In this document: in pieces, positions 3,423-63,737 of the stretch
Layout: every line of letters begins with the position of its first letter
How positions within the stretch are numbered: the first letter of the stretch is position 1
Source: a virus
Taxonomy: Duplodnaviria > Caudoviricetes
Reading direction: 5' to 3' (one strand)
DNA: 64,000 bases
IMG/VR virus record: IMGVR_UViG_3300014039_000012
Coordinates: 96,001 to 160,000 of that record
Made by a program: the position numbers and the translations under genes
The notes under the pieces: model-generated
Database searches by the model: none
The model's input: the letters and a program-made list of their open reading frames with translations, nothing else
Told to the model about the DNA's origin: nothing

Positions 3423-5029
3423 TGTGTCAGATTGAACAGTTTGTAACAGGTGTTATTGATCAGTACCCGCAGGAGCTTTTAGAGAATCGATTAACAGTTG
3501 AAGGGAATTTACTTGCGGCTTTATTTTCAGACGTTACGCTGTATGATGATGTGTGCGCCACAATTACGGTCGAGTCTTTTCTTTCTCGTCACGGTAAACT
3601 TCTTTTTGGAATTGTCAAATATCTTCGTGAAAAGCACTTCAACGTAATCGACGAAGTAACAGTTCTCTCTAATTGTAACGAAGAAGTGCTTGACCGTCTG
3701 CAGAGTATTGGCGGGTGGAAGACAATTCAGAAACTTGCTTCAACCGTTGACTTGAAAAACTGGGATGCTATTCTTGATGAGTTCAACAAAAGCAACATTA
3801 TTCTGAAACTTTATAAAAATGGATTCAATCTTCTCGAAGAAGTGACGCTTGACAATGGAAAGAAAATCAAACCGCTGAAACTGTTTGAGAGATTTAGCGC
3901 AAACAATGTTACCGAATGGTACGAGGAGAGAATTGCCAATATTTCGATTAACAATAGTGCTTCCTCGATGAAAATTATTGACGAGGGCGAAGCACTATTC
4001 GGCGGAGACTTTCTTAAAAATCTGAAAGAAGATGGGGACGATGGTGTTTCTCTTGCAAAAGCCGGATTGAATTTCGAAGGCAAAGAGATCAAAATGTTTC
4101 CCTTCCTGACCCGTCAAATTTCTGGTCTTCACAGAGGAACAACTAATGCCCTTGCCTCGCACTCTGGTTGCGGTAAAACAAACCTGATAATGAACATCGT
4201 TTTTACTCTTCTTGCGCAGGGGTTGAAAGGCGTATTTATTAGTAACGAGATGTCTTCCAAAGAGCTGAAGATTATTATTATGATGATCGTTCTGACACAA
4301 TATAGAAATTATTGGAAGATTACAAAAAAGAAATTGAGAAATGCCGATTTAACAGATGAAGATAAAGAAGAAGTTCAGTTGGCATTAAAATGGTGGGACG
4401 AAGGTATCGGCAAAAATCTGAAAATCGTTACAATGAGCGATGCCGATTCCGCTCTGACGCACGATATTATTAAAAAAGAAGCACTTCGTAATGGAATCGA
4501 TTTCTTCGTGGTCGATACATTTAAAATGACGCTCGAAGATGGAAACAATTCTGGATTCTGGATTGATCTTATTAAAGATTCTCGTGATATGGACTCTCTT
4601 GCAAAGAAATATAATCTAATTGGACTTTATACAATTCAGTTGGTGGCAAACAGCATTGGGAATTTGTTTTTGGACGCATCTGCACTTTCTGGCAGCAAGG
4701 CCATTAAGGAAACATGTTCTACTATGATCTTCATGCGTAAAGCCCTTATGAGTTTGGAACTAGAGGCTGGTGGCCCATATGATTTTAAGCCATTTCGTTC
4801 CATTCAGCAACCGGACGGTTCATACAAAGACGAGCCTTATGAGCTAAAAGACGAAGAAAAAAAATGCGTTTATCGAGTTTTAACCATTGATAAAAATAGG
4901 TATGGAGCAGATAGTGGGGATAATGGCGTCGCATATCTTTATAAGTACACCGGAGATTTTTGTAAATGGGGCGAGACTTGTAAAGTAAAACCCGTAAGAA
5001 AACGTGTGGGGCAAGACGTGAAGCAATGA
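3422..5029 (+). CDS. dnaB: Replicative DnaB-like helicase
   Basis: Walker A SHSGCGKT, FISNEM, Walker B FVVDT, IQL, DKNRYG arginine-finger region. Confidence 0.85.
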   Translation: MCQIEQFVTGVIDQYPQELLENRLTVEGNLLAALFSDVTLYDDVCATITVESFLSRHGKLLFGIVKYLREKHFNVIDEVTVLSNCNEEVLDRLQSIGGWKTIQKLASTVDLKNWDAILDEFNKSNIILKLYKNGFNLLEEVTLDNGKKIKPLKLFERFSANNVTEWYEERIANISINNSASSMKIIDEGEALFGGDFLKNLKEDGDDGVSLAKAGLNFEGKEIKMFPFLTRQISGLHRGTTNALASHSGCGKTNLIMNIVFTLLAQGLKGVFISNEMSSKELKIIIMMIVLTQYRNYWKITKKKLRNADLTDEDKEEVQLALKWWDEGIGKNLKIVTMSDADSALTHDIIKKEALRNGIDFFVVDTFKMTLEDGNNSGFWIDLIKDSRDMDSLAKKYNLIGLYTIQLVANSIGNLFLDASALSGSKAIKETCSTMIFMRKALMSLELEAGGPYDFKPFRSIQQPDGSYKDEPYELKDEEKKCVYRVLTIDKNRYGADSGDNGVAYLYKYTGDFCKWGETCKVKPVRKRVGQDVKQ

Positions 5030-6852
5030 ATGTTAAATGGACAGATGAGACGGTTAAAGATTGGATAGATAATAATGTTGCAAAAGACCTATTTGTTGGA
5101 ATTGAAAGAGCCACTTTTGATAACGGAACAAGAAAACAAATAAGAACAAGAGTTTTTGCGAAATGTATAAAATGCGGGATTGTTTTTAAAAAAGATTGGG
5201 ATGAATATAGAAGAAAGAAAATATTTTTATGCAAGAATTGTTCTCTTGAACTTTTGCATCTTCCGAAGACACTAACCGATAATTATATTTCTAATTTTGT
5301 TAAAGAAAATTCTTCTGCTGAATTAATCAAAATTGAAAGATACAAATTAAAGCCGCCGTTATTAATTTTAAAATGTTCATCTTGTGGTGAAATATATAAA
5401 CAAAATTTTACAGATTTTAGTAGAGAAGACGGTTGCAGAGTGTGCCAAAAATGTACGGATAAAATTAGAAGAACAACCCGTTCACGAAATGCAGCGAAGC
5501 AAAATAATCTTTTAGATAATTGTCCCGAAATTATAGATATTTGGAGTAGTAAAAATAGTTGTGGTCCAGAAAATTATTCCTTAAAATCAAATAAAAGAGC
5601 ATTTTTTAAATGTAACAAATGTGGGAATGAGTGGTCTGCAATAATTAACGCGGTTGCGACTTCGTTAAAAGCGGGGAATAGTGGATGTGGAAAATGTTTA
5701 AGAAAGAAAGCATATACAAAGCAGGAATTTCTCGAAGATCTTAATAAGTTAAATCCAACAATAGAACTTTTGGGACAGTATACCAATCTTACAACCCACA
5801 CAAATTTTAGATGTAAAGTCTGCGGCAATATTTGGAAAGCCCCTCCTAACAGACTTGTACCACAAACTTCTAAAACAAAACCCACTGGTTGTCCAGTATG
5901 TTCTCGTAAAGCAATTGGCCCTCCTCCTGAATATTTAAACAGTATTTGGTCAAATGATCGTTATCGAGAAGAGTGGGCGCTATATTTTGATGAAGAATTT
6001 ATGAAAACCCACACAGTTCAATGCGATCGGTATGTAGAAATCAGATGTCCTGATTGTGGCAAAATAAAAAGAACTAAAATTTCTAATTTGGCACATCGGG
6101 GTTTTCGCTGTAGTTGTAATCGTAAAACAAGTTATCCTAATAAGTTTCTTTATTCGGTTTTGGATCAACTCGGCATCGAATATGAGTCAGAATATAATCG
6201 CGAATGGAGCAAGATGATGAGATATGATATCGCAATTCCGTCCCTATCTCTTATCATTGAGAACCACGGAATTCAACATTATAAAGACGGAATATTTTCT
6301 ACCAGAACTCTTGAAGAAAATCAAGAGACAGATAGAATTAAAAAGAAACTCGCTATTTCCAACGGATTTATTAATTATGTCGTATTAGACTGTCAAAAGG
6401 CAGAAGCGGGTTGGATTAAGAAATCTATTATGGAAAGCGAACTGTCAAAATTATTAAAATTCTATGAATCAGATATCGATTGGGACAAAGCGGACGCATT
6501 TGCCTGCAGCAATACTATTCGAGAAATATGTGAAAACTGGGAAACAGACTTTGATATAGAAAGAGTCTCCAAATTTTTTCATATATCAAAAGGCACAGCC
6601 CAAGATTATCTTCTTATTGGTCATAAATACGCTTGGTGTTCATACGACCCACAATGGCATTTCCGGCCAGTATTTTCACCAGAACTAAATCGGCGATTTG
6701 GAGCAATGTATGCCGCATCAACTAAATACGGTGTTAAGTGTTCCGACATTCTATGTTGCTGCGAAGGCAAAAAAGAGTCTGCGGGAATTGACCCACAAAC
6801 AGGACTGCTACTAACTTGGAGATATGCAGATGATTATACAAGTACAAGATAA
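5026..6852 (+). CDS. Multi zinc-ribbon protein with Vsr/PD-(D/E)XK-like nuclease domain (putative homing endonuclease)
   Basis: About nine CxxC pairs followed by SYPNK...RYDIAIPSLSLIIENHGIQHY; C-terminal NUMOD1-like segment. Confidence 0.65.
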   Translation: MNVKWTDETVKDWIDNNVAKDLFVGIERATFDNGTRKQIRTRVFAKCIKCGIVFKKDWDEYRRKKIFLCKNCSLELLHLPKTLTDNYISNFVKENSSAELIKIERYKLKPPLLILKCSSCGEIYKQNFTDFSREDGCRVCQKCTDKIRRTTRSRNAAKQNNLLDNCPEIIDIWSSKNSCGPENYSLKSNKRAFFKCNKCGNEWSAIINAVATSLKAGNSGCGKCLRKKAYTKQEFLEDLNKLNPTIELLGQYTNLTTHTNFRCKVCGNIWKAPPNRLVPQTSKTKPTGCPVCSRKAIGPPPEYLNSIWSNDRYREEWALYFDEEFMKTHTVQCDRYVEIRCPDCGKIKRTKISNLAHRGFRCSCNRKTSYPNKFLYSVLDQLGIEYESEYNREWSKMMRYDIAIPSLSLIIENHGIQHYKDGIFSTRTLEENQETDRIKKKLAISNGFINYVVLDCQKAEAGWIKKSIMESELSKLLKFYESDIDWDKADAFACSNTIREICENWETDFDIERVSKFFHISKGTAQDYLLIGHKYAWCSYDPQWHFRPVFSPELNRRFGAMYAASTKYGVKCSDILCCCEGKKESAGIDPQTGLLLTWRYADDYTSTR

Positions 6853-8559: not shown

Positions 8560-9570
8560 ATGCTCACTGACATCAAACAAATGTTAATAGAAAACCCAGA
8601 GCACATCGTGGAATTGCTCGAAAGGTTTGAATTCTGCCATATCCATCTCAAACGAACAGAAATCCGGTTTGCTCGTAATGAAGAGGGTGGTCAAAATATC
8701 TCGATTCGGCTCGAAGATAATCCTTCAATTTATGTTAAAGATTTTGTAACAAATGAGAACGGCGACATTATCGCATATATAATGAAAAACCGCTCGGTAA
8801 AGTTTATCGAAGTTCTTTCAGAAATCAAAAGCATTCTGGGACTCGGAGACGATTGGGAGCCGCCGAAAAGAGACGCGTTGTTCGGCGGGTTTTACGACCG
8901 AATCGGAGAAGATAGACAGGTCGAAATTCAAACATATCCAGAATCGATTATGAACCAATATGTCGACAAAGGGAATCTTCGTTGGGTTCGAGACGGAATT
9001 AACCTCGAGACACAGAAGTTTTTCGATGTGCGATTCGATCCGATTGATGACTTGATTGTTTTCCCGTGGAGATCTCCGATTGGAGGAGAGATTATTGCGG
9101 TTAAGGCAAGAGTCAATCATCCGGTCGAGGACGGACAGCAAAAGTATTTTTATGTTCATAAGGGTATGGTGAGCCAGTCGTTATATAACTTTTCAGAATC
9201 ATATGATGGATTGTTCGGAAATGACATTTTGGTTTTCGAGAGCGAAAAGAGTTGTATGCAAGCACGCGGGTTTGGATATAAGAACACGGTGGCGCTTGGT
9301 TCGAGTAATCTTTCGGAAGAACAGGCGAGATTAATTATGACGTTAGCGCCGAAGTCGGTAAAGTTTTTATTAGACGAAGGACTTGAAAAAGAACATACGA
9401 TGAAAAACGTTGAGACGTTGAGACAATATTGTGTGTTTAGAGATTTGCCAATTTCTTGGTGGGATTGGCAGAAGAGCTCGGTTGTTGATGGGAGTGGAAA
9501 AGATAGTCCGACCGACTTGGGCAAAGAGAAGTTTGAAAAAGTTTTGAGAGAGGAAATGGTGGGAGTATAA
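8560..9570 (+). CDS. DNA primase (TOPRIM, YorJ-like)
   Basis: IVFPW, KY, TOPRIM VFESEKS...VALGSS...LLDEG...KDSPTD; directly upstream of the polymerase. Confidence 0.75.
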   Translation: MLTDIKQMLIENPEHIVELLERFEFCHIHLKRTEIRFARNEEGGQNISIRLEDNPSIYVKDFVTNENGDIIAYIMKNRSVKFIEVLSEIKSILGLGDDWEPPKRDALFGGFYDRIGEDRQVEIQTYPESIMNQYVDKGNLRWVRDGINLETQKFFDVRFDPIDDLIVFPWRSPIGGEIIAVKARVNHPVEDGQQKYFYVHKGMVSQSLYNFSESYDGLFGNDILVFESEKSCMQARGFGYKNTVALGSSNLSEEQARLIMTLAPKSVKFLLDEGLEKEHTMKNVETLRQYCVFRDLPISWWDWQKSSVVDGSGKDSPTDLGKEKFEKVLREEMVGV

Positions 9571-12500
9571 TGCAAAATCTTCATCGACATACTTCATATT
9601 CGAATGTATGTATTGCGGATTCCGCAGCAACAAACGAACAATATGCCAAAAGAGCCGTAGAGTTGGGGCATAAAGTGATTAGTAGCGTTGAGCACGGGTG
9701 GCAGGGATATTATTATCAATGCTATGAACTTGCTCAAAAATATAATCTAAAATTTGTTTTTGGGGCAGAAGCATATTGGGTCAAGGACAGGCAGAAGGAA
9801 TATGAAGAAATTGACCCGGCAACCGGAGAACCGTTAAAAAATAAAGATGGAACAATAAAAGCACACAAAGATAATTCTAATTGTCATATATTGCTTCTCG
9901 CAAAGACGGAAATCGGAAGACGTGCGATTAACAAGATTCTTTCAGAAGCAAACGAAACAGGATATTATTTTAGACCTCGTGTCGATCTCGAACTTCTTCT
10001 TTCTCTTCCCCCTAACGACGTAGTCGTAACAACTGCTTGCGTGGCATATTGGAAATACGATGACATTGAAGATATTACTCTTCAATTGTGGAAACATTTT
10101 GGAAAAAACTTTTATCTTGAGATTCAAGCGCACGCAACCGACCAACAAAGAGAAATCTCTCGCAGAATTCTTTCCTTGTCGCAAAGATATGGAATTGAAA
10201 TGATTGTTGGGCTTGACAGTCATTACATTTATCCAGAACAAGCGCAGGAGAGAGAATATATTCTTGAAGCGAAAGACGTCCATTACAAAGACGAAGATGG
10301 ATGGTATATGGACTATCCCGACGACGAAGAAGTTATGAGACGTTTTATGGAGCAAGGAGTTTTTACAAGAGAACAAGTCCAAAGAGCGATGGACAACACA
10401 GATATTTCTCTAACATTTGACGATTATGCAAAAGACAATCCTGTTTTTAGTAAAGACATCAAACTTCCTACTCTTTATCCCAATCTTTCGCAAGAAGAAA
10501 GAAACAAAAAATATAGTGTTCTAATTAGCAAACTTTTTAGAGAATACGCAGAAAAACATCATATTACAGGAGAAGAGTATAAGAGATATCTTGAAGGAAT
10601 CAAAATGGAGGTTCAAACAGTTAAAGATACTGGAATGGCCGACTATTTCCTTCTTGATTATGAAATTGTTAAAAGAGCAATTGAAAAAGGCGGGGTTTTG
10701 ACTGACAGTGGGAGAGGATGTTTTACGTCCGACGCAATGGCTTTAACAACGAGCGGCATCAAGCACATTAACGAAGTTAAGGTCGGAGATTTTGTAATAG
10801 ATCAAAACGGAAATCCGCAAAAGGTTATTGATACAATGGAATATGATTGTAATGAGGAAATGGTTCAGCTTCTTTATGCGTATGGACCAAATACTCATAA
10901 TCCATTGATCTGTACAAAAGATCATAAGATTTTGATTCATAGAAATGGACAAAATTCTTGGATCGAAGCCGGAAATATTCAGCAAGGAGATTATGTTTGT
11001 TCTCCAAAAATTCATTTTGAAAATCGAGCTCCTGAATATATTGATTTAAATGACTATAATATTTTTGGATATGATTTTGATGATGAATATATTTATGAAT
11101 ATCGTCCTGCGGCAAATGGTATTGTTAAATTTAATTCCATAGATGTTTCTAACCACATTGGTTGTTCCAAACCGTGGGTGTTGCAGGCTGTAAAGAACCC
11201 AGATCGAAAGAAATTTAAACATCCAGAATATGTAAATAGACTGTTAGAATATACGGGCTTTAAATCTCTTCAAGAATATAGTGATTATTTAAAAAATTCT
11301 CACGTTATCAAAATTAAAAGATTTATAAAGAATGACGAACTTTTCAATACGTGGGTTGGAATGATGTATGGAGATGGATGGGTCCGCAATTCCAAACAAA
11401 CGACGGACGTGGGTATGGCGTTCTCCACTTATGGTCATAAACAATCTTATAACCGAGAGATATGTATTAAAATGATTGAGCGTTTTGGAGCACCCTATAG
11501 GTGTGCCGTTCATAAGACAAAACAATTAGAGCAAATTATTATGAAAAGTCGTATTGTGAGTGAGTTTTGTAAAAAATTCTTATTCACAAGTAAAAAAGGA
11601 AAGGCAAAAAGTTTTAATCAAGATTTGTTTTATCAATCCGAGGACAATTTAAGAGCATTATTAAAAGGTTTGACAATTACCGATGGAAGCACCGGGAAAG
11701 AGAATAGAAGAGACAGTTTCGACAACATATCTCAAAGTATCGTTGGAGCATATAAAATTTTAGTGTCAGCAGTTGCTCATTGTCCCACAAGTTTATCTGT
11801 TAGAAAAGCCCACGAAGACAATAGAGGATATCATTCTCAAACTAGTTACAAAATAAGAATGATGAAAGATACGGACGTCCATGTGCTTTCGACATATAGA
11901 ACGCTTTCTGACGATAACTATATTTATCTTCCGGTTTCTCAAATCAAACCAATTGAAAAAGCTAAACGAAAAGTATACGACATCACGGTTGAAAATTCTC
12001 ATAGTTATGTTTTGGATAGTATAGTTGTCCACAATTCTTCAGTTGGATATTTTACAAACACTCTTCTTGGTTTTTCAAAAGTCGATAGATTTCAAAGTCC
12101 GATAACGCTCTATCCTGAGCGATTTATTAGTAAAACAAGAATTCTGGAAACCCACTCATTACCCGATTAACAACATAGTCGCCCATATAAGTGATTATAT
12201 GTGGAAAACCTCGAATATCAGGGGAAACCCTTAAGTCTTAATTACAAAACATTAGCGAAAGCAAAGTGTGGCATCGCCAATCACGATGGTATTGTAAAAA
12301 GATTAAGAATTGGGCAATCCTGAGAGATAACCCTAACCGAATTTATCGTATGGGGAGCTCGCAACGACTACCAAGAGGAATCCGAGATAACATCAACGAT
12401 TGTGGTATAGTCTATTCCGACCATTTATTTGGTGCAAATACTACGAAAGTAGCGGTAGGTCAAGATCGATATGAACTGGGGAACCCCGGAAATTGCTGAA

Positions 12501-14756
12501 GAAGCACAAAAGGAAATTCTTGGTGACGATCACGCAATTCCGATGATTGCTTTTGGAACTTGCAAAAAGAAATCTGCGTTTAAGCTTTTTGCTCGTTCGC
12601 AAAATATGAATTTTGAACTGGCAAATACTATTTCTTCACAAATTGCGGATTATGAAGAAGCCGTTAAAAACGCAGAAGATGATGATAAAGACCAGATTGA
12701 TATTTACGATTTTGTAGATAAAAAATATGCCGATTACATTGAACAGAGTAAAAAATATTGGGGCATTATTATGGATAAAAAGAAAGCGCCATGCGCGTTT
12801 CTTCTTTACCGAGGCAATATTCGAGAAGAAATTGGTCTGATTAAATGTAAGTCGGAATCAACCGGCAAAGAGTGCATAACGGCCGTTGTAGACGGGGCAA
12901 TTGCAGAAAATTACAAATTCTTGAAAAACGACATTCTTTGCGTAAGTATTGTTCTTTTGGTGGATAAGATTTATCGAAGAATCGGAATTCCGCATAAAAC
13001 AGTCGAAGAACTAAAAGAGTTTGTTAAAAACGATCCAAAAACTTGGGACATTTATAAAAACGGATATACACTTGGAGTTAATCAGTGCGAACAAGCAAGT
13101 TCTGCGAAGAAAATGATGAAATTTAAGGCAAAAAACATTTCCGAACTTTCTGCGTGGATTGCCGCAATTCGCCCCGCCTTCAAGTCAATGTATTCAAAGT
13201 TTGAATCGAGAGAATCTTTTAGTTATGGAATTCCTGCTTTTGACAAACTTCTGCAAACAGAAGAACTTCCACAGTCTTGGATTTTGTATCAGGAGCAGTC
13301 GATGTCTGTTCTTTCATATGCCGGATTTCCGATGGACGAATGTTATGGGATCATAAAAGCAATTGCTAAAAAACACCCAGAGAAAGTTCGTCCGTTGAAA
13401 GATAGGTTTATCGAAGGATTCAAAAAAAGAATTATTACAGAAGAAGGAATTGAAGAAAATCAAGCGCAGGAAATGAGCGAGAGGGTTTGGCAAATCATCA
13501 ACGACTCTTGCGGTTACGGTAAACTTTGTTGCCGTATTAAAACCTACTTAACCACGCCAGTGGGTGTCCGCATAGCGGGCTAACGGAGAACTCTAAGTCT
13601 ATAAGATATGAGAATCCCGTGCTAATCGAAAGATGAGTGTAGAGGACATCGAAAGGATATTTTAATATTAAAGCTAGTATTAAAAAAGTAACCGAGTAGA
13701 GTAGAATGTGAGACGGGCACACGTTCCAAACAGTAGGGAGATTTTAGCAAAATCTCAAGATATGTTGCAATATAGTAACCAGTATGGAAACATACATCTA
13801 TATTGTTCAATTCTGCGCACGCATATTGTATGGCAATAGATAGTCTTTCTTGTGCAATGCTGAAAGCAAATTATCCATATGAATTTTATGAGGTGCTTCT
13901 ACAATTCCATTCCGATAGAGGAGAAAAAGACAAGGTTGGAGCCCTAAAAGCGGAAATGAAAAAAGCTTTTAGTATTCAAGAAGGTCCGTATCGATTTGGA
14001 GAAGATAACCGCAAATTCAACGCAATTCCGGAAAGAGGAATTATCCAACCGTCTCTTTTGTCAATTAAGGGACTGAGCCAAGATTTGGCAAATGATCTTT
14101 ATGAACTTTCGCAAACTAAAAAGTTTGATAATTTTATAGATCTGTTAAGAGAATTCGATCATATGAAATCGATGAACATTGCGAAGTTGGATACGTTGAT
14201 TAAACTCAACTATTTCTCTCAATTCGCCCCCATCGGAAAACTTCTGAACATCGTTGAACTCTATAACAAGTTCGGAACTCGTAAGACACTCAAAGAATCC
14301 GACGTTTCCGCCCTCCCCGCGCCCGTTCAGGAAGTTATCGCAAAATATACCACCAAGCCCAAAACGCAGTATAAAATCACGGATAACGATGGAATGCTTC
14401 GTGAGCTTGCAGAAATGGTCGGAGAACGTCCGATTACAATGATGATGCGTTTGTCGTGGGAAAAGGATTATTTGGGTTACTGCGCCTCTACCGATCCGTC
14501 ACAGCAAGGAAGTTGGCTCGTTCTGGATATCGATACGAAGTTCTCTCCGAAGTTGAGCATATATTCTATCTGGAGTGGAGAACAGCGTATCGTTAAAGTC
14601 TCGAAGCGTGACTTCCAATCAAATCCTCTCGCTAAAGGTGATACAATCCGTCTCACCATTGAACAACGTCCGAAGACAAAGCTCGTGGACGGACAATGGG
14701 TAAAAGACGAAAGCGTTAAAGAAGATTGGCTAAAATATTATTCAATTGTAAAATAA
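9570..14756 (+). CDS. dnaE: DNA polymerase III alpha subunit, join(9570..12167,12465..13520,13806..14756), contains an intein
   Basis: PHP motif LHRHTSYS. Splicing restores SGRG|SSVG (intein), LPD|IDMN (intron 1) and GYG|FNSAHAY (intron 2). ILYQEQ motif. About 1534 aa precursor, about 1095 aa mature. Confidence 0.92.
10719..12035 (+). mobile_element. Intein with LAGLIDADG homing endonuclease in dnaE (439 aa)
   Basis: Starts CFTSD after GRG; block B CTKDHKI; LAGLIDADG-like VGMMYGDG and LKGLTITDG; ends VYDITV...VVHN followed by Ser +1. Confidence 0.93.
12168..12464 (+). mobile_element. Group I intron 1 in dnaE (297 nt, no endonuclease ORF)
   Basis: 5' exon ends in U with P1 CGAU/GUCG; GGGCAAUCCUGAG; P7 ACGACUA/UAGUCU; terminal G. 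Removal restores catalytic PDID. Confidence 0.9.
13521..13805 (+). mobile_element. Group I intron 2 in dnaE (285 nt, no endonuclease ORF)
   Basis: P1 UACGGU/GCCGUA with U-G at the splice site; P3 CCUACU/AGUAGG; AAUCCCGUGC; P8 GAGAUUUU/AAAAUCUC; J8/7 AAGAUA; terminal G. Removal restores YGFN.AHA. Confidence 0.85.
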
Positions 14757-49235: not shown

Positions 49236-49317
49236 GGACCTGTGGCGAAATTGGCAAACGCATTCGACTTAAGATCGAGTACCTCCGGGTTTAAGAGTTC
49301 AAATCTCTTCAGGTCTA
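49236..49317 (+). tRNA. tRNA-Leu(UAA), CCA not encoded
   Basis: GGACCTG/CAGGTCT acceptor, TTCGA-CTTAAGA-TCGAG, variable arm, AAGAG-TTCAAAT-CTCTT. Confidence 0.85.
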
Positions 49318-50428: not shown

Positions 50429-50504
50429 TGTCGAGTAACCAAGTGGTAAGGTAACTGGTTTTGACCCAGTCATTGCGCAGGTTCGAATCCTGCCTCGACA
50501 GCCA
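50429..50504 (+). tRNA. tRNA-Gln(UUG)
   Basis: TGTCGAG/CTCGACA plus G-CCA; ACTGG-TTTTGAC-CCAGT; GCAGG-TTCGAAT-CCTGC. Confidence 0.92.
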
Positions 50505-56257: not shown

Positions 56258-56315
56258 AATTCTTTCCTTTCTCCCCGCTTATGGTCAGATAGGACAACCA
56301 ATTGTTAATTTTTTG

Positions 56316-56639
56316 TTAATGATTGAAATATAATTTTTGTTCAATTCTTTGCATCGGATAAATCCGATTTTCATCAAACGGATAAACAATTTCATTGACG
56401 TTATCGTCTTCGTCTACGATTGTCAAGCAATCATAACTTTCAACTTCAACGAGAACTGCTGTCTCTTCTGCGAAGAACCACCAATTATTATCAATAATAT
56501 TGATAATCTTTTCGGCTTTCTCGCTGCTGTCGAGCTTTTCAGCGATGTATTGTTGAAGTTCATTGCGTTTATTATCGAAATCCGTCCAGTTGTCAGGCAC
56601 TTTGATGATTTCTGTTTTTAATTGTTCTCTGTACGTCAT
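56316..56639 (-). CDS. Hypothetical early protein
   Basis: AAGGAG RBS overlaps the HNH stop; ATG at 56639. Confidence 0.6.
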   Translation of the reverse strand: MTYREQLKTEIIKVPDNWTDFDNKRNELQQYIAEKLDSSEKAEKIINIIDNNWWFFAEETAVLVEVESYDCLTIVDEDDNVNEIVYPFDENRIYPMQRIEQKLYFNH

Positions 56640-56644
56640 GATAT

Positions 56645-57178
56645 TTACTCCTTCGGTTTTGCAATTACCCATGTTTTATTATGTAAAATTGATTGTATAG
56701 TTGTTGCTCCAACTCCATATTTTCTTGCCAATGCTCTTCCACCAAAGATTGGATCTCTTGGAATGTATGTTTCCAATATATCATTCACATCTTGTCTTGT
56801 TAATTTGTGGCTACCATTTTTTTCCCCATAACTTATACCATTGGGAAGTTTCAAACCTGTATCAAACGCATGCTTAATGTTTTGAGACTTCGTTACCCAT
56901 TCAAGATTTTCAACAAAATTATTTTCCTTATTTCCATCTTTGTGGTTAATTTCAGGAAATCCATTCGGATTTTCAATAAAAGCCATCGCAACAAGTCTAT
57001 GAACCTTAAAATTTTTCATTGTTCCATTTTTACAAAGTTTAACATTCATATATCCATATCTGTCTTTATCAAGATGTAGTATTTTCTCGTTTTTACTTTT
57101 CAGTGATTTAATTTGTCCAAAATTTGATACCTGATATTCTTCATATCCACCTTCTATTTGTTTCCATATTTCTTCCAT
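56645..57178 (-). CDS. HNH homing endonuclease (NUMOD4-HNH)
   Basis: EIWKQI.G.E.YQVSNFG, KVHRLVAMAFIENP...EINHKDGNKENN.VENLEW. Confidence 0.9.
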   Translation of the reverse strand: MEEIWKQIEGGYEEYQVSNFGQIKSLKSKNEKILHLDKDRYGYMNVKLCKNGTMKNFKVHRLVAMAFIENPNGFPEINHKDGNKENNFVENLEWVTKSQNIKHAFDTGLKLPNGISYGEKNGSHKLTRQDVNDILETYIPRDPIFGGRALARKYGVGATTIQSILHNKTWVIAKPKE

Positions 57179-57236
57179 GTAGTTCTCCTTTAATTTATTG
57201 CCGGTAGGACAGCATAATTGTTAAAATTTTGTTAAT

Positions 57237-57380
57237 TCAGAACGGCAATGTGTCGCGACTCAAATGCAGATCAAGCCAGTCATAGGTCTTCGGAAAGTGG
57301 TCCATCATCCAAGCCCAGAAATGCCTTCTTCTTCTGCGTTCTCTCCGAGTCTCAATTGCACTTCGCTTTTGCTTCTTCAT
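57237..57380 (-). CDS. 47 aa Arg-rich small protein
   Basis: AAAGGAGG RBS; MKKQKRSAIETRRERRRRRHFWAW... Confidence 0.5.
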   Translation of the reverse strand: MKKQKRSAIETRRERRRRRHFWAWMMDHFPKTYDWLDLHLSRDTLPF

Positions 57381-57763
57381 ACTTTTCCCTCCTTTCTCAA
57401 TTCGCTAAAATTCTTCATCGTCGTATATTTCCAACCGTCGCAGTCGGTCATATACCAAATGATAACTGGGTTGTTATCCTTGTCGAGTGCCACTCCCTTG
57501 AACTGTAAATCCAAGTCGTCATTACTCCTTGCGTCAACGTTGGTGTTCCAGATTGCAGCATATTCTCCGCTCGAAGTGTAAGGAAGTCCGTAGGTCAGTT
57601 CGACGTTCCTCTCACGCTTTCCGTGAACAATCCGCAGACTTTTGTCGAGCCATTTCACTGCCGCAAGGGCAATCTTGTACTGTCTTTCGTAGTCGGTCCA
57701 TTCTTTTACTTCATTCGGGTAAAGCTCCATCGATGTCGTTTGGGTGTTCTTAATGTTTTCCAT
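57377..57763 (-). CDS. Hypothetical early protein
   Basis: GAAAGGA RBS with pseudoknot leader. Confidence 0.65.
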   Translation of the reverse strand: MENIKNTQTTSMELYPNEVKEWTDYERQYKIALAAVKWLDKSLRIVHGKRERNVELTYGLPYTSSGEYAAIWNTNVDARSNDDLDLQFKGVALDKDNNPVIIWYMTDCDGWKYTTMKNFSELRKEGKV

Positions 57764-57863
57764 ATCAGAAATCCTTTCTCCGGTTTTATCGAGGTTCTCC
57801 GGAAACTCAATATTTTAATTTTATATAATCAGGATAAAATCCTGTAATTTTCGAGTATTTATT

Positions 57864-58796
57864 TTAGTACGGATAACTTTTAAATGCTTCGTCTTTGTCG
57901 TGTTGTATATCGTTACTTAAATCTCTAAATCGTGTATATTTCTTGTTCGGGTTTATTTTGAAAAACGAAAGCAAATCGCTATAATACCATTCCGACATCG
58001 ACTCGGAACAATAATGTTCAAGGACTTCTTTTTCATCAATTGGTTCTTCGCAATGTTCTTGAACAATCTTCAACATATTATCTTCTTCGGTCTTTTGTTT
58101 TTCTCTTGAACGTTTTGATCTTTCTTCTTCTTTAGCCTGTTCTACTTCGTGCTTCCAATATTCGTATTTTTCTCTGTCGTCAATAATAGAGGAGATTTGT
58201 TCTTTAGACAATCCTGTGATCTTTTGAATCTCCGGATATTTTGTTCTTTTTCGATATAGTTGAACGACCTTGATCTTTATCTCTGCGGTAGCAGGGGGAG
58301 AAACCGCGCCAGCGGTCTGGGAAGGTTCGTCAGAACCACCCCTCTCGATCTCTGTCTCCTTCTCCTTCTCTCTATCTTTATCTATATCTTTTTCTTTATC
58401 TATATCATGGTTTTGACCCTTTTGACCCATTTTATTATATCGTTTTAAAGCGCATCGAATTGAGTCTTCTGTCAACCCCATTTTAGAAGCGATATCTTTA
58501 ATCGAATCTCCATTTTCTTTCAGGCGATAAATCTCATCATAATCCAATTCTTTTGGTCGTCCGCCCTTCTTTCCAGCTTCAACCGCTTTTCGATATTTCT
58601 CTTGTGCGGATTGAACATTCGGAAGACAACTGCCTTTTATCCAGCCAAGAATTAAGTCATTTTCTGTTTTGATTTCTCCTCGAATCGATAAATATACTAA
58701 CGCATAAATCGCTTCTTTAGCGAAATCAGTTCCCATCATTTTCTCAAACGCATCAATTGTTTCGAGCCAGCTCTCGTAAAATACCATATTTGCCAT
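57864..58796 (-). CDS. DUF6291-like N-terminus plus HTH protein (replisome-organiser-like)
   Basis: FYESW...Y......GKKGGRP, (DKE)n linker, two HTH-like segments. Confidence 0.55.
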   Translation of the reverse strand: MANMVFYESWLETIDAFEKMMGTDFAKEAIYALVYLSIRGEIKTENDLILGWIKGSCLPNVQSAQEKYRKAVEAGKKGGRPKELDYDEIYRLKENGDSIKDIASKMGLTEDSIRCALKRYNKMGQKGQNHDIDKEKDIDKDREKEKETEIERGGSDEPSQTAGAVSPPATAEIKIKVVQLYRKRTKYPEIQKITGLSKEQISSIIDDREKYEYWKHEVEQAKEEERSKRSREKQKTEEDNMLKIVQEHCEEPIDEKEVLEHYCSESMSEWYYSDLLSFFKINPNKKYTRFRDLSNDIQHDKDEAFKSYPY

Positions 58797-58870
58797 ACTT
58801 TAATCTCCTTTTAAAATGAATTTTTCTTTTAATTAATTTTAATATTTTGTTCATAATTGAACTCCTTTGA

Positions 58871-58939
58871 TTAGAATCTGTGAATTTCTATAAAAGCCAG
58901 AACTAATATCAATAATACCAAGATGCCAAAAGGTGACAT
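58871..58939 (-). CDS. 22 aa membrane peptide MSPFGILVLLILVLAFIEIHRF
   Basis: GGAGGT RBS; paralog of 54702..54767. Confidence 0.6.
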   Translation of the reverse strand: MSPFGILVLLILVLAFIEIHRF

Positions 58940-58973
58940 ATATTTTACCTCCAATCTTCTAAAATATCTATAT

Positions 58974-59004
58974 AAAAAGGAGACTGGATTTCTCCAGCCT
59001 CCTT
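58974..59004 (-). terminator. Intrinsic terminator (- strand)
   Basis: AAGGAGGCTGGA-GAAA-TCCAGTCTCCTTTTT. Confidence 0.8.
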
Positions 59005-59035
59005 GAATTTTAATAATTTGTTAATAATTTAATTG

Positions 59036-59410
59036 TCAGAGCTCGACCTTTTTTCCTCTACCGCAAATTCTTGCAAACGGGCAATAGAAAGACAGATAGC
59101 TATTCAAGTGTCTCCCAACCTGTTTGTTATCCCAGAGCACAAACATATATTCGAGGGCATTTGCAACAGACCAGAAATCACATCCGTCTTTAATTGCATA
59201 GATTCCGGATTTAAGAAGTTGTTTTAAAAACTCTTTCTCATAATGCGTTGCGGGCGCGACAAAGTCACTTTCATTTTCGGGGCGAACCCAAACTTCATCA
59301 GAAAACATATTCGCAAGTTTATTAACAATTTCTTGATCGATAGAGCTTTCTTCGTTTGCGTAGGTTTCGAAGAGATACTTCTGTTCTGCGGTTTTGTAAG
59401 TAGTAAGCAT
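59036..59410 (-). CDS. Hypothetical early protein
   Basis: RBS plus pseudoknot leader. Confidence 0.65.
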   Translation of the reverse strand: MLTTYKTAEQKYLFETYANEESSIDQEIVNKLANMFSDEVWVRPENESDFVAPATHYEKEFLKQLLKSGIYAIKDGCDFWSVANALEYMFVLWDNKQVGRHLNSYLSFYCPFARICGRGKKVEL

Positions 59411-59487
59411 AGTTTTAATCCTTTCTGCCGTTTTGTAAGAGGTTTGCGGTGACTCTAATTTTTAAATTTTAATAATTTGTTAATAAT

Positions 59488-59883
59488 TTAATATGTGAAA
59501 TCGACGAAGACCGGAGTGTCTTTCTTCAACATCCGTTCGTAGCTGATATCGTCCCGTCTTCCGCAGGAGTATTTCTTTTCGGAGCGATCGTAGTCGCCCT
59601 TCTCATAGACCTGCGAATCTTTCGGATTGGCAATCGGTTTCAAGGTGAACCAATCACCTTTCTTTAATGCTCCGAGAGTCAAGACAAAGTTCGGATTCTT
59701 TTCAACCCGGTGTTTGATTCGGAATGTTGTCTGCGGGCAATTTTCGCGATATTCTTTTAGCGTCTTTTTGGCTTCCGCGAGAGTGTATTCAGAGCATTCA
59801 ACGCTCCATTCGTTCCCGTAGAATCCTTCGATGTCATAACGGTCGATGGTCTTTCTGGTGTCGATAGTGGTTGTGGTTTTCAT
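59488..59883 (-). CDS. Hypothetical early protein (two-module)
   Basis: EA...LKEYREN.P module followed by an LKKGDWFT...YDRS.KKY module. Confidence 0.65.
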   Translation of the reverse strand: MKTTTTIDTRKTIDRYDIEGFYGNEWSVECSEYTLAEAKKTLKEYRENCPQTTFRIKHRVEKNPNFVLTLGALKKGDWFTLKPIANPKDSQVYEKGDYDRSEKKYSCGRRDDISYERMLKKDTPVFVDFTY

Positions 59884-59920
59884 AGTATTTCTCCCTTTTA
59901 ATAATTTGTTAATATTTTAA

Positions 59921-60181
59921 TTACCAATTTGTTCTCATGCATTCGTCCAACCAAACAACCCGATGTCCCCAACGGAAACCAGTTCTTCCGTCGTTGTTGG
60001 TGAAGACTTTTGATTTTTTCGGAGTTTCTTTCGTTCCGGCGATTTCGACAAAGTAGACAATTTCTTCCGATTCATCGATCTCGCAAATTTCCAATCCAAG
60101 TCCAGCAAGTCCTCCGTAGTAGGTCGCAATAGGGTCTTTCCCTTCGATGTGATTTTTGATTTCGGTTTTGGTGATTCTCAT
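59921..60181 (-). CDS. Hypothetical early protein
   Basis: AAAGGAG RBS; ends LDECMR. Confidence 0.65.
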   Translation of the reverse strand: MRITKTEIKNHIEGKDPIATYYGGLAGLGLEICEIDESEEIVYFVEIAGTKETPKKSKVFTNNDGRTGFRWGHRVVWLDECMRTNW

Positions 60182-60211
60182 AGCTTTATTCTCCTTTTTT
60201 AATTGTTTTGT

Positions 60212-60460
60212 TTATTTCTTTCTCATAGACAAAAGAACAAGCGCCTCAACTTCTTCTTCTGAAACGCCCTCGAGTTTATTCATATAATCGCAGCGTTCCT
60301 TTGCCATTTCAGCAGTCGGATAGAAGTTAAGAGGCCAATATCCATATTCACCTTTCATAACATAGATTGCAGCAGTCGGATCACTCGGAAGTGTCGTGTA
60401 AGCGCATTCGGGGAGATTTTCGGGATGCTCAAGCAACTCCATAAGTTTTTGTTTATTCAT
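60212..60460 (-). CDS. Hypothetical early protein
   Basis: LPE.AY...GE.GY.P...N...GVS...EA....SM. Confidence 0.65.
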   Translation of the reverse strand: MNKQKLMELLEHPENLPECAYTTLPSDPTAAIYVMKGEYGYWPLNFYPTAEMAKERCDYMNKLEGVSEEEVEALVLLSMRKK

Positions 60461-60513
60461 AATATTTTTCCTTTCTGGCCGTATATGTCCGATACCGCAG
60501 ACAAATTTTTAAT

Positions 60514-60822
60514 TTAGCAAATCACGAACCAAAGCTTCTTGTAGTTCTGTTCACAAAATTCAACATTGCTTAATTTATTTTTGTTAAAATCAGGATATGA
60601 AGGATCGTTATAAATTGTTCCATCGGGACTAAGACAGGAAATCCAATCTTGATATTTTTCGCATTCAGCAGCGTCTTTTTCATCGATAGTATAAGTAACG
60701 AAGTTTCCATAACCATTGTAATTAGAAACATAAATATGTTCGTCGTTATAATAAAGATCGTGACCTCTCTTGACAAAGTCGAGCATTTTCTTCGCGTTTT
60801 CAAAAGTAGCAAAATTTTTCAT
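60514..60822 (-). CDS. Hypothetical early protein
   Basis: RBS plus structured leader. Confidence 0.6.
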   Translation of the reverse strand: MKNFATFENAKKMLDFVKRGHDLYYNDEHIYVSNYNGYGNFVTYTIDEKDAAECEKYQDWISCLSPDGTIYNDPSYPDFNKNKLSNVEFCEQNYKKLWFVIC

Positions 60823-60877
60823 AGCATTTCCCTTCTCTCCGTATAACGCCGTTAGGTCAGCGTAATTTAATTATTGA

Positions 60878-61330
60878 TTACTGAATGGTTTCGCGCATTT
60901 CCTCAATCTGCTCTTCGGTAAAGCACCGATGAAGTTTCTCATTCTGCGCAAGACAAGCCTTCCAAATCTTCCGAGCTTTCGTGCGTTCGGACCCGGGCGT
61001 GTTGTCATATCCGTATTCCGAGCAAAACTCCTCGAAATCGTCATCCGCATAGCTGTCTCCTCCGAGGCAAGTCAAAATGTCATAAGCTGTCGGTTCTGCT
61101 TCCGCAATCTTTTCAGGGTCTTTCGATTGGAGCTTTTCCTTGTTTGCGATAGAATCCCAGAAAATTCCCCACATATGTCCGAGAGGGGTTTTGATGTCGT
61201 AACGGTAACGAGGGCGCAGAACTGAGTCCCAATTGGTATTTGCTGCGAGCCCAGTGTAAGTGAATTTCACGGTGATGTTGTGCTTCTTGCAGAAATTGTC
61301 GGCGATTTCGGTGTAGGTTGAGTGTCTCAT
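60878..61330 (-). CDS. Hypothetical early protein
   Basis: ATG 61330 after GAAAGGA; PTAYDIL.CL...FEEFCSEYGYD motif. Confidence 0.7.
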   Translation of the reverse strand: MRHSTYTEIADNFCKKHNITVKFTYTGLAANTNWDSVLRPRYRYDIKTPLGHMWGIFWDSIANKEKLQSKDPEKIAEAEPTAYDILTCLGGDSYADDDFEEFCSEYGYDNTPGSERTKARKIWKACLAQNEKLHRCFTEEQIEEMRETIQ

Positions 61331-61392
61331 AATATTTCCTTTCTTTTGCGATGGTATTATGCCGCCACCGCACGGCAAATTGATTTTGTTAA

Positions 61393-61408
61393 TGTTTCAC
61401 GTGAAACA
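61393..61408. promoter_or_regulatory. parS: parS site (host ParB/Spo0J-type)
   Basis: Perfect 16 bp palindrome TGTTTCACGTGAAACA, intergenic. Confidence 0.85.
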
Positions 61409-61410
61409 AT

Positions 61411-62301
61411 TTAGCCCTTGATTTCTTTCAGATAGTCTTTCCAGAGGGCGTCGGTCACTCCATATACGTTATGGATTGAATCGCAGCTGTTCGTTCTGCG
61501 TTCGTCAATATAGAACTTCCAAATATTTGTGAACGGAATTTCGATATCTTTGTCGCAACTGATGTCAAGCACGGAACCGCTTCCATCCCATGGGTTAAAT
61601 AGTCCGCAGGTTGTTCTCTTGTCAAGAACAATCGAACCGTTAGGATTGGACTTCATCTTTTCCTTCAGCTCGATTGCCTGTCCGAGCGTCATTTTTACGC
61701 AGAAAGTTAGTGCTTCGCAGCCGTAACCGTTGTCAATTTCTTGCTGAACAGTTTCGAGGAATGTTTTCGGTCTCTCAACGGGGTCTTTCTTTAAGATTTC
61801 AACAACTTCTTCGAAAGTATACCCTTGTTGTTTTGCCAACCAGACAAGCCCAGCTTTTTCAGCATTTTCATCGACTTTTCCATCTTCATCAACGATATGC
61901 TCATTTAGCCAGAAGTCATAATTGTCATCGCCATTTGAAACAACGATGTTAAAACAGAACTCCTGCGACAGAGCCCAGTCTTCCGGGTAGTCGACACAGA
62001 CGACATCCATAAATGCTTCTCGAATGTCCTCGTGTTCAAAGAGTTTTGATTCGATCTTTTCTTCGAAACCATCAACAATGTTGTCGGTGATATCCCATTC
62101 CTGCTCTTGATATCCATCCCAAAGCTTTTCAATCAGAATGTCTCGAGGAGAGTCATCCTCAAGGATTTCCTGCGCGGTTGAGTCGTCAATTTTATCTCGA
62201 TAATCGGTGTAAATTTCGAAATGATAATTTCCGTCTTTCTGTTTTGCATAGCCGTAGTTTTCTGCGAGAAATTCCTTTACGAGTTCATTAATGTCTTTCA
62301 T
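61411..62301 (-). CDS. Acidic hypothetical early protein
   Basis: 296 aa; LVWLAKQQGY, CGLFNPWDGSGS. Confidence 0.7.
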   Translation of the reverse strand: MKDINELVKEFLAENYGYAKQKDGNYHFEIYTDYRDKIDDSTAQEILEDDSPRDILIEKLWDGYQEQEWDITDNIVDGFEEKIESKLFEHEDIREAFMDVVCVDYPEDWALSQEFCFNIVVSNGDDNYDFWLNEHIVDEDGKVDENAEKAGLVWLAKQQGYTFEEVVEILKKDPVERPKTFLETVQQEIDNGYGCEALTFCVKMTLGQAIELKEKMKSNPNGSIVLDKRTTCGLFNPWDGSGSVLDISCDKDIEIPFTNIWKFYIDERRTNSCDSIHNVYGVTDALWKDYLKEIKG

Positions 62302-62368
62302 AGTATTTTCCTTTCTGCGGTTTTGAAGAGGTTTTCCGCAAACTCTAATTTTTAATTTGTTTTAGTGA

Positions 62369-62842
62369 TTAACCAAACAGAACTTCTCCAAAAAGCGAGA
62401 ATTGAACAATGATGTCGGCAACTTCCGAATCAATCTGACAACAATTGAGCTGCCACTCTCCGAATCCATCTCCTTCGGGGACGAACCAGTTGTAATGAGA
62501 ATAATAACCTTCTTCAATTGCTTTTCGAATTCCGATGAAAAGCTTCTCGAGAGAGAGTAAATAATTTTTACCATTTTCGATATCTGTAACTTCCAGTTCT
62601 TTTCCATCAAAAAGAATTTGTGCGAAAATCTCTTCAAAGCAGACATCTTTCAAGTCTGCTCCTTGTTCGACAAGATGTTTCTTCGCTTCGGAGTAGTCGT
62701 TGTCGTTAGCGGAAACGGCCGCCCAGTATCCAACCCCGCCATTTACGGCGGAGCAGACAATATCCAAAACATCTTCTTTTGTGATTTTAACTTGAATTGT
62801 CGGTTTCAGAATTGCGCAAGTTTTATTCCATTTCAATTCCAT
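62369..62842 (-). CDS. Hypothetical early protein
   Basis: GGVGYWA...ID...ADIIVQFSLFGEV.FG phage motif. Confidence 0.7.
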   Translation of the reverse strand: MELKWNKTCAILKPTIQVKITKEDVLDIVCSAVNGGVGYWAAVSANDNDYSEAKKHLVEQGADLKDVCFEEIFAQILFDGKELEVTDIENGKNYLLSLEKLFIGIRKAIEEGYYSHYNWFVPEGDGFGEWQLNCCQIDSEVADIIVQFSLFGEVLFG

Positions 62843-62843
62843 A

Positions 62844-63317
62844 TTAGAACACCACCTTTTCAATAATTTCGATTTCGTAACGATCTTCGGACCAGAATCC
62901 TTCCTGATAAACGGAGAAGTAATATTCGCCTTCATCGACAACTTTATTGTCAAGTTCCATCAAATGGTCATTTGCCTTCTCGTCGGCGACACATTCATCG
63001 AAATAGGCTTTTGCCTTTTCGCGCGTTGAGAAAACTTTCATTTCGGTGTCGGTTGAACCGTCAATTGTCGCATCAACTTTAACAATGTAAACGAAAGTCG
63101 GCTTATTCTCTTCTGAATTGAAAATCTTGTCGGCAAGGTCACTTGCCTTCGCGTCTTCGGGATCGTCATCATCGAGAATGCGCATATCTCCAGTTGAAAT
63201 TCCACATTCTTGACATTGGTAATCGATCGCATCTTTTGCGTAATCGATCGTTCCTTTGTCCATCTCGATTGCACGGTCGTCCTCCACGAACAGTTCAGCC
63301 AAAATTCTTCTTTCCAT
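62844..63317 (-). CDS. Acidic hypothetical early protein
   Basis: RBS plus pseudoknot leader. Confidence 0.65.
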   Translation of the reverse strand: MERRILAELFVEDDRAIEMDKGTIDYAKDAIDYQCQECGISTGDMRILDDDDPEDAKASDLADKIFNSEENKPTFVYIVKVDATIDGSTDTEMKVFSTREKAKAYFDECVADEKANDHLMELDNKVVDEGEYYFSVYQEGFWSEDRYEIEIIEKVVF

Positions 63318-63393
63318 AGTATATACCTTTCTTCGGTTTTGTTGAGGTTTGCCGAAAACTCATAATTTTTAGTTGGTGGTTTTGTGATTATGA

Positions 63394-63687
63394 TTAATCG
63401 ATATTGTCGAACACTGCTGTCGCAATTGCCTGTTTGGAATTTCCGGTTACGCAAACTCCACGGCTCAACCGGTCGAGAGAGTCGAGGAAGAAGACATATT
63501 CTTCTCCATTTGTGTAAACAACATAGGTGCATCCATACCAACCGCTGTTAGAGTTAGCAACGGCCGGAGAAAGAAACATCTCGACATATGCGCTCTTGTC
63601 GAGTTGGGATTTATTCATTTCGTGCCAAGTAGCGCGGACGTAGCCCTTTTCCTCAAGTTCGCGGGGGTAAACTTTGTTCTGTTTCAT
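63394..63687 (-). CDS. Hypothetical early protein
   Basis: RBS plus structured leader. Confidence 0.65.
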   Translation of the reverse strand: MKQNKVYPRELEEKGYVRATWHEMNKSQLDKSAYVEMFLSPAVANSNSGWYGCTYVVYTNGEEYVFFLDSLDRLSRGVCVTGNSKQAIATAVFDNID

Positions 63688-63737
63688 ATTTATTTCCTTT
63701 CTGCTCGTTTAATGGTCGAATCGCCCAACCAATTTGA

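Follow-up and report, generated by a model that had tools for sequence, protein, structure and literature searches.

In the leader of phage gene 32 a pseudoknot lies tens of bases upstream of the ribosome-binding site, with an unstructured stretch between the two; in the Escherichia coli rpsO (S15) operator the ribosome-binding site and the start codon are part of the pseudoknot, which a single specific protein traps. Here we analyse a family of structured leaders in an uncultured human-gut phage (Duplodnaviria; Caudoviricetes), IMG/VR record IMGVR_UViG_3300014039_000012, which is 169,441 base pairs (bp) long and complete by CheckV. The stretch under study, referred to as the window, comprises the 64,000 nucleotides (nt) of bases 96001-160000 of that record, and positions are those of the window unless given as genome positions. 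A first-pass annotation, made from the letters of the window, had described H-type pseudoknots abutting the Shine-Dalgarno sequences of many early genes. We find that this RNA structure family is real and new to the catalogues, and that it shows a quantitative link, also new, to how the ribosome-binding site is built, leaders with a fold almost always lacking the GGAG core of the Shine-Dalgarno sequence.

The elements share features with several described systems and differ from each of them. The gene 32 leader of T4, T2 and RB69 (PMC3014915) is likewise an H-type pseudoknot in the 5' leader of a phage messenger RNA (mRNA) with A/U-rich sequence nearby, but it serves one gene and one self-regulating protein, whereas the knots described here touch the ribosome-binding site and precede dozens of protein families. 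The rpsO operator has in common with them a pseudoknot at the ribosome-binding region, which has to be accommodated on the 30S platform when the site pairs; here, in contrast, both the site and the start codon lie outside the knot. The preQ1-I aptamer (RF00522) is an H-type knot of about 32-34 nt with a first stem of 4-5 bp, a loop 1 beginning with U, a loop 2 ending in C and an A-rich loop 3, and the 3' strand of its second stem adjoins the ribosome-binding site, all of which recurs here. However, the second stem of class 1 (below) has 5 G+C-rich bp rather than 3-4 weak pairs, the ribosome-binding site is outside the fold, and the many copies per genome precede unrelated phage genes, can be swapped for a different fold and are not accompanied by queuosine genes. 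The PeSL motifs of T4-type phages are promoter-terminator composites acting as DNA (PMC2839356, PMC4122927), and they too are repeated composite motifs which border small early genes of unknown function and are tied to gene gain, loss and replacement; unlike them, most copies here have neither a promoter nor a T run after the fold, and covariation is of the RNA type. Finally, the 5' stabilisers of Bacillus cited in a review (PMC3997798) include aprE, where a 5' stem-loop acts together with ribosome binding, as well as STAB-SD and a polypurine stabiliser.

Leader pseudoknots of the early array

The early array consists of about 45 small genes on the minus strand, running from about position 54000 through the end of the window to genome position 166.5 kilobases (kb), and the pseudoknot leaders occupy the gaps between these genes. 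The window has nine leaders with a fold, and the phage as a whole about 15. The leader sequences quoted in the first-pass annotation were all found on the minus strand where it had placed them. In the leaders inspected, each fold was followed by AGAAAGG or AGAAGGG and then by the start codon. A generic pseudoknot finder run on single leaders gave chance knots scoring up to about 24 in unrelated leaders, and covariation was used instead. Two covariance models were made, each with one helix left out: R1 describes stem 2 of class 1, stem 1 being omitted, and R2 describes the hairpin of class 2, its loop-to-tail helix being omitted. The sources searched were this phage, six IMG/VR relatives and 34 metagenome contigs, 43 sources being counted for copies. 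R1 matched 160 copies in 43 sources and R2 matched 134 copies over all sources, and every one of these matches was on the sense strand (294/294).

In class 1 a stem 2 of 5 G+C-rich bp is combined with a loop 1 of 2 nt, and the loop bases UU, AAC and an A run are conserved. This phage has five R1 copies, and each of four IMG/VR relatives has 1-6. The four copies in the window, which were also recovered independently by a repeat finder as a 4-copy, 60-nt direct repeat, are as follows:

63326..63362, minus strand: class-1 H-type pseudoknot and Shine-Dalgarno sequence; start codon 63317; R1 66.6 bits
62310..62346, minus strand: class-1 pseudoknot and Shine-Dalgarno sequence; start codon 62301, of a protein of 296 amino acids (aa); R1 65.3 bits
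59420..59456, minus strand: class-1 variant with a stem 2 of 3-4 bp, ending one base before AGAAAGG; start codon 59410; R1 48.7 bits
57773..57810, minus strand: class-1 pseudoknot and Shine-Dalgarno sequence; start codon 57763; R1 68.8 bits

The claim that both class-1 stems vary in sequence yet keep their pairing was borne out by the R1 alignment and by the stem that the model had omitted. Across 77 distinct rows 96.7% of cells were paired, compared with 86.6% in shuffled alignments, and none of 500 shuffles reached as high a value. Changes on both sides were seen in six of the nine pairs, and full compensatory paths could be followed in stem 2, for example from C-G through U.G to U-A. When the partner column was slid by one as a control, pairing fell to about 55%. 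Stem 1, which had no part in R1, was 97.5% paired and contained three covarying pairs.

The R2 copies of this genome number six, all on the minus strand between 152 and 164.5 kb. Four of the class-2 leaders, together with a degenerate relative, lie in the window:

63696..63736, minus strand: class-2 pseudoknot with a 6-bp hairpin and a 7-nt loop; start codon 63687; R2 31.9 bits
60830..60868, minus strand: class-2 pseudoknot with a mismatch in the short helix and the Shine-Dalgarno sequence AGAAGGG; start codon 60822; R2 52.1 bits
60470..60508, minus strand: class-2 pseudoknot and Shine-Dalgarno sequence; start codon 60460; R2 54.4 bits
56266..56305, minus strand: class-2 pseudoknot and Shine-Dalgarno sequence; start codon 56257; R2 42.7 bits
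57187..57220 (genome 153187-153220), minus strand: degenerate class-2 hairpin without a flush tail, before an HNH gene; weak R2 match of 14.4 bits

The last of these had been counted as the tenth structured leader of the window; the other nine of that count were confirmed, and the tenth is only this degenerate hairpin. The class-2 loop-to-tail helix joins loop positions 2-4 with the three bases just before AGAAAGG, and its 3 bp were paired in 98.3% of cases. Its first pair is G-C in 46 and C-G in 32 cases, its second is C-G in 60, G-C in 14 and A-U in four, and its third is mostly U.G. Because this omitted helix covaries, class 2 is an H-type pseudoknot as well. Loop positions 2-3 had rightly been said to covary with the last two bases before the Shine-Dalgarno sequence, and the helix extends to a third pair; the mismatch remarked at 60836 is real, and the closest relatives carry the pairing base there. 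Two wobble pairs of class 2 are nearly invariant and the loop bases ACG are conserved. Taken with the G.U pairs of class 1, these wobble pairs indicate that the fold is specific to the mRNA strand.

A further structure, at 61347-61377, had been regarded as a longer version of class 2. The structure is present and constitutes a third class:

61338..61377, minus strand: class-3 fold with a 7-bp long-range helix and a possible 4-bp crossing helix, its end 3 nt ahead of AGAAAGG; start codon 61330; 35 near-identical copies in relatives

Each phage has a single class-3 copy, placed just behind the 296-aa gene; no covariance model was made for the class because its 35 copies are almost identical. Among these the long helix shows four single changes, three of them compatible with wobble pairing and one a mismatch. 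Two diverged copies have one double change and are flush with the ribosome-binding site. The short crossing helix is invariant in all copies, and so gives no covariation signal either way.

The array outside the window contains further leaders of related design. One is a further class-1 knot with a small hairpin behind it, and the others are a knot whose loop-to-tail helix has 4 bp and two hairpins of 3 and 9 bp; all of them are flush with the same ribosome-binding site. Whole-genome searches with both models agreed with the view that no copies precede plus-strand genes, all copies being within genome positions 152-166 kb. This location and the conserved G.U pairs support an element family that is specific to the early array and belongs to RNA rather than DNA. 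The evidence thus shows that the folds are real and under selection as RNA.

Placement of the folds and exchange between classes

The position of the folds relative to the gene is tightly kept. A start codon was found 6-10 nt after the GG in 146/150 class-1 and 127/134 class-2 matches, and no insertion separates the last helix from AGAAAGG in either alignment, though loop 3 varies in length. On the upstream side the median distance from the preceding stop codon to the aligned element was 19 nt for class 1 and 5 nt for class 2, and the stretch between the two is AU-rich, as had been described.

The proteins downstream of the model matches fall into 44 unrelated families. Seven protein families have class 1 ahead of the gene in some phages and class 2 in others, which shows that the fold classes are interchangeable before the same gene, and gene clustering across arrays revealed many families that mix fold-bearing and fold-less members. 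Conversely, the same class-1 copy stands ahead of different genes in different phages; the copy at 62310..62346 is one such case, an identical copy in relatives preceding a different gene. It is clear that copies recombine with one another.

A gene of about 136 aa is situated between two class-1 copies, upstream of the 296-aa gene, in most relatives (5456-6000 in the relative L001). At the corresponding place (62301-62352) this phage has one class-1 copy and lacks that gene, and the absence is consistent with deletion by recombination between the repeats.

These observations could be taken to mean that the repeats matter mainly as DNA, providing short homologous boundaries at which small genes are inserted, deleted or swapped as with PeSL, the RNA fold being secondary. 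The identical class-1 copies before different genes, the missing 136-aa gene and the PeSL precedent (PMC2839356, PMC4122927) all speak for it. However, recombination needs identity and not pairing, so that compensatory changes in two crossing helices are left unexplained, as are the conserved G.U pairs, the fixed distance to the start codon and the coupling to the ribosome-binding site described below. The shuffling is better seen as a by-product of many similar cassettes, and we consider a primary role as DNA improbable.

Coupling of the fold to the ribosome-binding site

The Shine-Dalgarno sequence after the folds is AGAAAGGA, which is purine-rich and without a GGAG core. The last eight bases of a 16S ribosomal RNA (rRNA) of the Firmicute type, here taken to end as in Bacillus subtilis, are its complement. 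A ribosome-binding site that reaches the GGAG core was found in 6/240 leaders with a fold and in 483/750 without one, an odds ratio of 70 that is not corrected for relatedness. The same difference was seen within single gene families, in which the site of fold-bearing members corresponds to register 1-8 of the anti-Shine-Dalgarno complement (AGAAAGGA) and that of fold-less members to register 3-9 or 1-9, including the GGAG core, the registers being counted on the complement of a Firmicute-type 16S 3' tail that may not be the host's. The distance from the GG to the start codon differs as well, with a mode of 8 nt in the presence of a fold and 11 nt in its absence. Since neither R1 nor R2 includes positions beyond the GG, the link between fold and core-less site is not forced by the models, and in leaders matching neither model a stable flush hairpin likewise goes with a core-less site. 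Thus the fold and a 5'-shifted, core-less and closer-set ribosome-binding site form one unit, which alternates with an ordinary strong site. This coupling was absent from the first-pass annotation and is new here.

The ribosome-binding site shows no sign of being sequestered by an alternative fold in any group of leaders, the mean unpaired probability being 0.52-0.57 in all of them in a calculation which covers nested folds and has pseudoknots outside its scope.

A weak ribosome-binding site beside a fold would be a good target for steric repression, and the elements could therefore be a shared operator for a trans-acting phage or host protein, which would bind at the junction of fold and ribosome-binding site and, much as T4 RegA or gp32 do, turn the translation of early genes off or on at a given moment. 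Confinement of the elements to the early array and conservation of unpaired bases and wobble pairs within each class would fit such a protein, as would the fact that the site of folded leaders has not been strengthened to GGAG, though one mutation would suffice. But at least three folds can stand in for one another ahead of a given gene, and their loops share no sequence, so that one protein would have to read shape alone, and no RNA-binding domain was detected among the array proteins scanned. We therefore regard a protein operator as unlikely.

Searches for known RNA families

Searches with Rfam, made over the whole window at gathering scores and over the 8.5-kb region at E values up to 10, returned only chance matches and two tRNAs. 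With the preQ1-I model (RF00522) no match fell on the elements anywhere in the genome at E values up to 10; its best score, 10.4 bits, lay elsewhere and compares with a gathering score of 39. The earlier statement that the elements match no named RNA family is upheld by these searches of the window, the region and the genome. A full-text literature search likewise gave no description of such a leader family.

Ligand sensing had been one of the options put forward, and class 1 has the topology and the approximate size (about 32 nt) of the preQ1-I riboswitch, to which it might be related as an aptamer tuning early translation to a small molecule. Bases that line the pocket in the solved preQ1 structures would have class-1 counterparts in the alignment, namely the first U of loop 1, the last C of loop 2, the last A of loop 3 and G-C pairs on both sides. 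Against this, the RF00522 model scored none of the copies, and a G+C-rich stem 2 of 5 bp should fold without a ligand. The ribosome-binding site appears not to be sequestered, only its first A being paired and its predicted accessibility in nested folds being equal to that of fold-less leaders; the genes behind the folds are spread over 44 unrelated families, and class 2 can take the place of class 1. A queuosine link was also looked for: the phage has no TGT or QueC gene, and the downstream proteins scanned were without assigned function. Together these results disfavour ligand sensing, and a preQ1-type aptamer appears very improbable.

Transcription of the early array

Promoter scans gave no excess of sigma-70-type promoters ahead of the copies, with one strong promoter per array as the exception. 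In this phage it is a sigma-70-type promoter with a TG extension that matches at 12/12 positions (genome 164480-164508, minus strand) and lies inside the early array; its counterpart in the relative L001 matches at 11/12. In L001, stem 1 of a class-2 copy begins 8 nt past the end of the -10 element. In this phage the distance from the -10 element to the R2 match is 3 nt, and about 5 flanking bases at the start of the match bring the gap to about 8 nt here too. By this spacing the class-2 fold after the strong promoter should begin at about the predicted +1 position, and given a perfect promoter of the sigma-70 type, at least part of the early array is, as predicted from its sequence, read by the host polymerase. 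At the other side, one hairpin resembles a terminator and probably ends the transcription unit that holds most copies:

58977..59004, minus strand: terminator-like hairpin with a T run; 12 pairs and a T-rich tail

The position of the hairpins just before genes raises the question of whether they act at the DNA level, as promoters recognised by a phage RNA polymerase in the way that phage N4 uses hairpin promoters. Such a promoter would not need the loop-to-tail helix, which nevertheless covaries, and on the template strand the G.U pairs become A.C mismatches. Moreover, one copy is downstream of a perfect host-type promoter, and transcripts starting past the fold would have almost no leader before the ribosome-binding site. 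A promoter function of this kind is, in our judgement, extremely improbable.

Just after the terminator-like hairpin, a 310-aa protein with an HTH_23 / HTH_28 domain is encoded at 57864-58796 on the minus strand; no other protein of the array has a domain that could be recognised, and this one may be a transcription regulator. Direct repeats of 31 nt, AT-rich and 81-100% identical, were found in intergenic gaps of the early array at 58832-58862, 59003-59033, 59462-59492 and 59891-59921; some copies stand just upstream of a pseudoknot and others directly before a GGAG-type ribosome-binding site. This repeat may serve in processing, bind a protein or act as a promoter specific to the phage.

Neighbouring genes and relatives

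On the plus strand the window carries replication genes, comprising a DnaB-like helicase, a split DNA polymerase and an exonuclease V-like helicase. The polymerase (PHROG 405) is divided between 9570-12170 and 12471-13583, which match the N-terminal and C-terminal parts of the profile, and an open reading frame of 608 aa resembling an HNH or homing endonuclease is located nearby (5026-6852). Two tRNA genes, at 49236-49317 and 50429-50501 on the plus strand (Rfam 56.9 and 62.2 bits), lie between the replication block and the early array. Of the early-array products, 20 were scanned with PHROGs or Pfam, and no function was assigned save for one helix-turn-helix protein. An HNH homing-endonuclease gene at 56645-57178 on the minus strand has a GGAG-type ribosome-binding site and has kept the class-2-like hairpin without a flush tail, a state that would fit its insertion at the border of a cassette.

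The six related IMG/VR records are all out of one metagenome. The metagenome contigs came from a protein-anchored scan, which yielded 34 loci with 62-79% identity to the 296-aa protein, several of them labelled human gut. Among GenBank phages a DNA relative was found for the HNH gene and nothing else in the region. A search of bacterial genomes with the 296-aa protein found no relative, and hence indicated no host.

Discussion

The explanation that we favour, and to which we give about an even chance of being right, is that the folds would serve as constitutive, interchangeable leader modules of the early mRNAs, each presenting a weak ribosome-binding site and shielding the 5' end, with neither a ligand nor a dedicated protein required. 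Each module would be a compact fold, usually an H-type pseudoknot, whose 3' strand runs directly into the core-less AGAAAGGA. Its first task would be to present this weak site: the last helix of the knot would end where the helix between ribosome-binding site and 16S rRNA begins, and the two could stack on each other and so stabilise 30S binding. Its second task would be to leave no free 5' single strand, whether the message begins as a primary transcript or is cut within the AU-rich spacer. RNase Y sites are single-stranded, AU-rich and close to structure (PMC3997798). The fold with its bound ribosome would then block 5'-to-3' decay, by analogy with stabilisers of Bacillus in which a 5' stem-loop is joined to a ribosome-binding site. 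These two mechanisms, capping of the 5' end against decay and stacking on the 16S helix, are compatible and need not exclude each other. The copy predicted at +1 favours capping, and the coupling to the type and spacing of the ribosome-binding site favours a direct role in ribosome binding. Among the three options offered by the first-pass annotation (an operator, a ligand-sensing fold and a roadblock to decay), the roadblock or 5' stabiliser fits best on the sequence evidence.

The leader-module explanation can be set against the Bacillus stabilisers (the aprE leader, STAB-SD and the SP82 polypurine sequence; PMC3997798), in which, as here, a purine-rich ribosome-binding sequence accompanies a compact structure close to the 5' end or at the end itself. 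In the present leaders a ribosome-binding sequence does adjoin the structure, AGAAAGGA following directly after the fold with a start codon 6-10 nt on. The 5'-end position, in contrast, is predicted here for one copy per phage, the other copies being internal. The present folds also differ from the Bacillus stabilisers in being pseudoknots with two covarying helices rather than simple hairpins, in forming a multi-copy family of interchangeable members, most of them internal and in need of processing, and in being coupled to a particular register of the ribosome-binding site.

Several points count against leader modules that act in this way. Most copies are internal to a long polycistronic transcript, and processing in the AU-rich spacer is an assumption. 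The conserved loop bases and wobble pairs exceed what a roadblock needs, and could be a recognition surface instead. The fold is not always flush, since class 3 ends 2-3 nt before the ribosome-binding site, and class 1 pairs the first A of that site inside stem 2. The 16S 3' end used is of the Firmicute type and may not be that of the host. Finally, the link between fold and ribosome-binding site could partly reflect the copying of whole cassettes and not function.

A bolder proposal, which we put forward tentatively as possible but doubtful, is that the pseudoknots may be a new kind of ribosome-docking element. The last helix would stack end-to-end on the helix formed by AGAAAGGA and the 16S 3' end, and the folded domain would replace the GGAG core and set a different spacing to the start codon. 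If true, capturing ribosomes in this way at an early stage of infection could be a strategy general to phages.

In bacteria and phages, structured leaders that need neither a ligand nor a dedicated protein are still poorly charted. Support for the present family is unusually good, consisting of hundreds of copies with two crossing helices that both covary and a tie to the register and spacing of the ribosome-binding site, and it supplies three candidate families for Rfam. If the leader-module explanation is true, the folds would offer a compact, swappable leader part for synthetic biology in Firmicutes. If the fold does strengthen a weak site or cap the message, this would give an explanation of how long transcripts can serve dozens of small early genes in a large gut phage.

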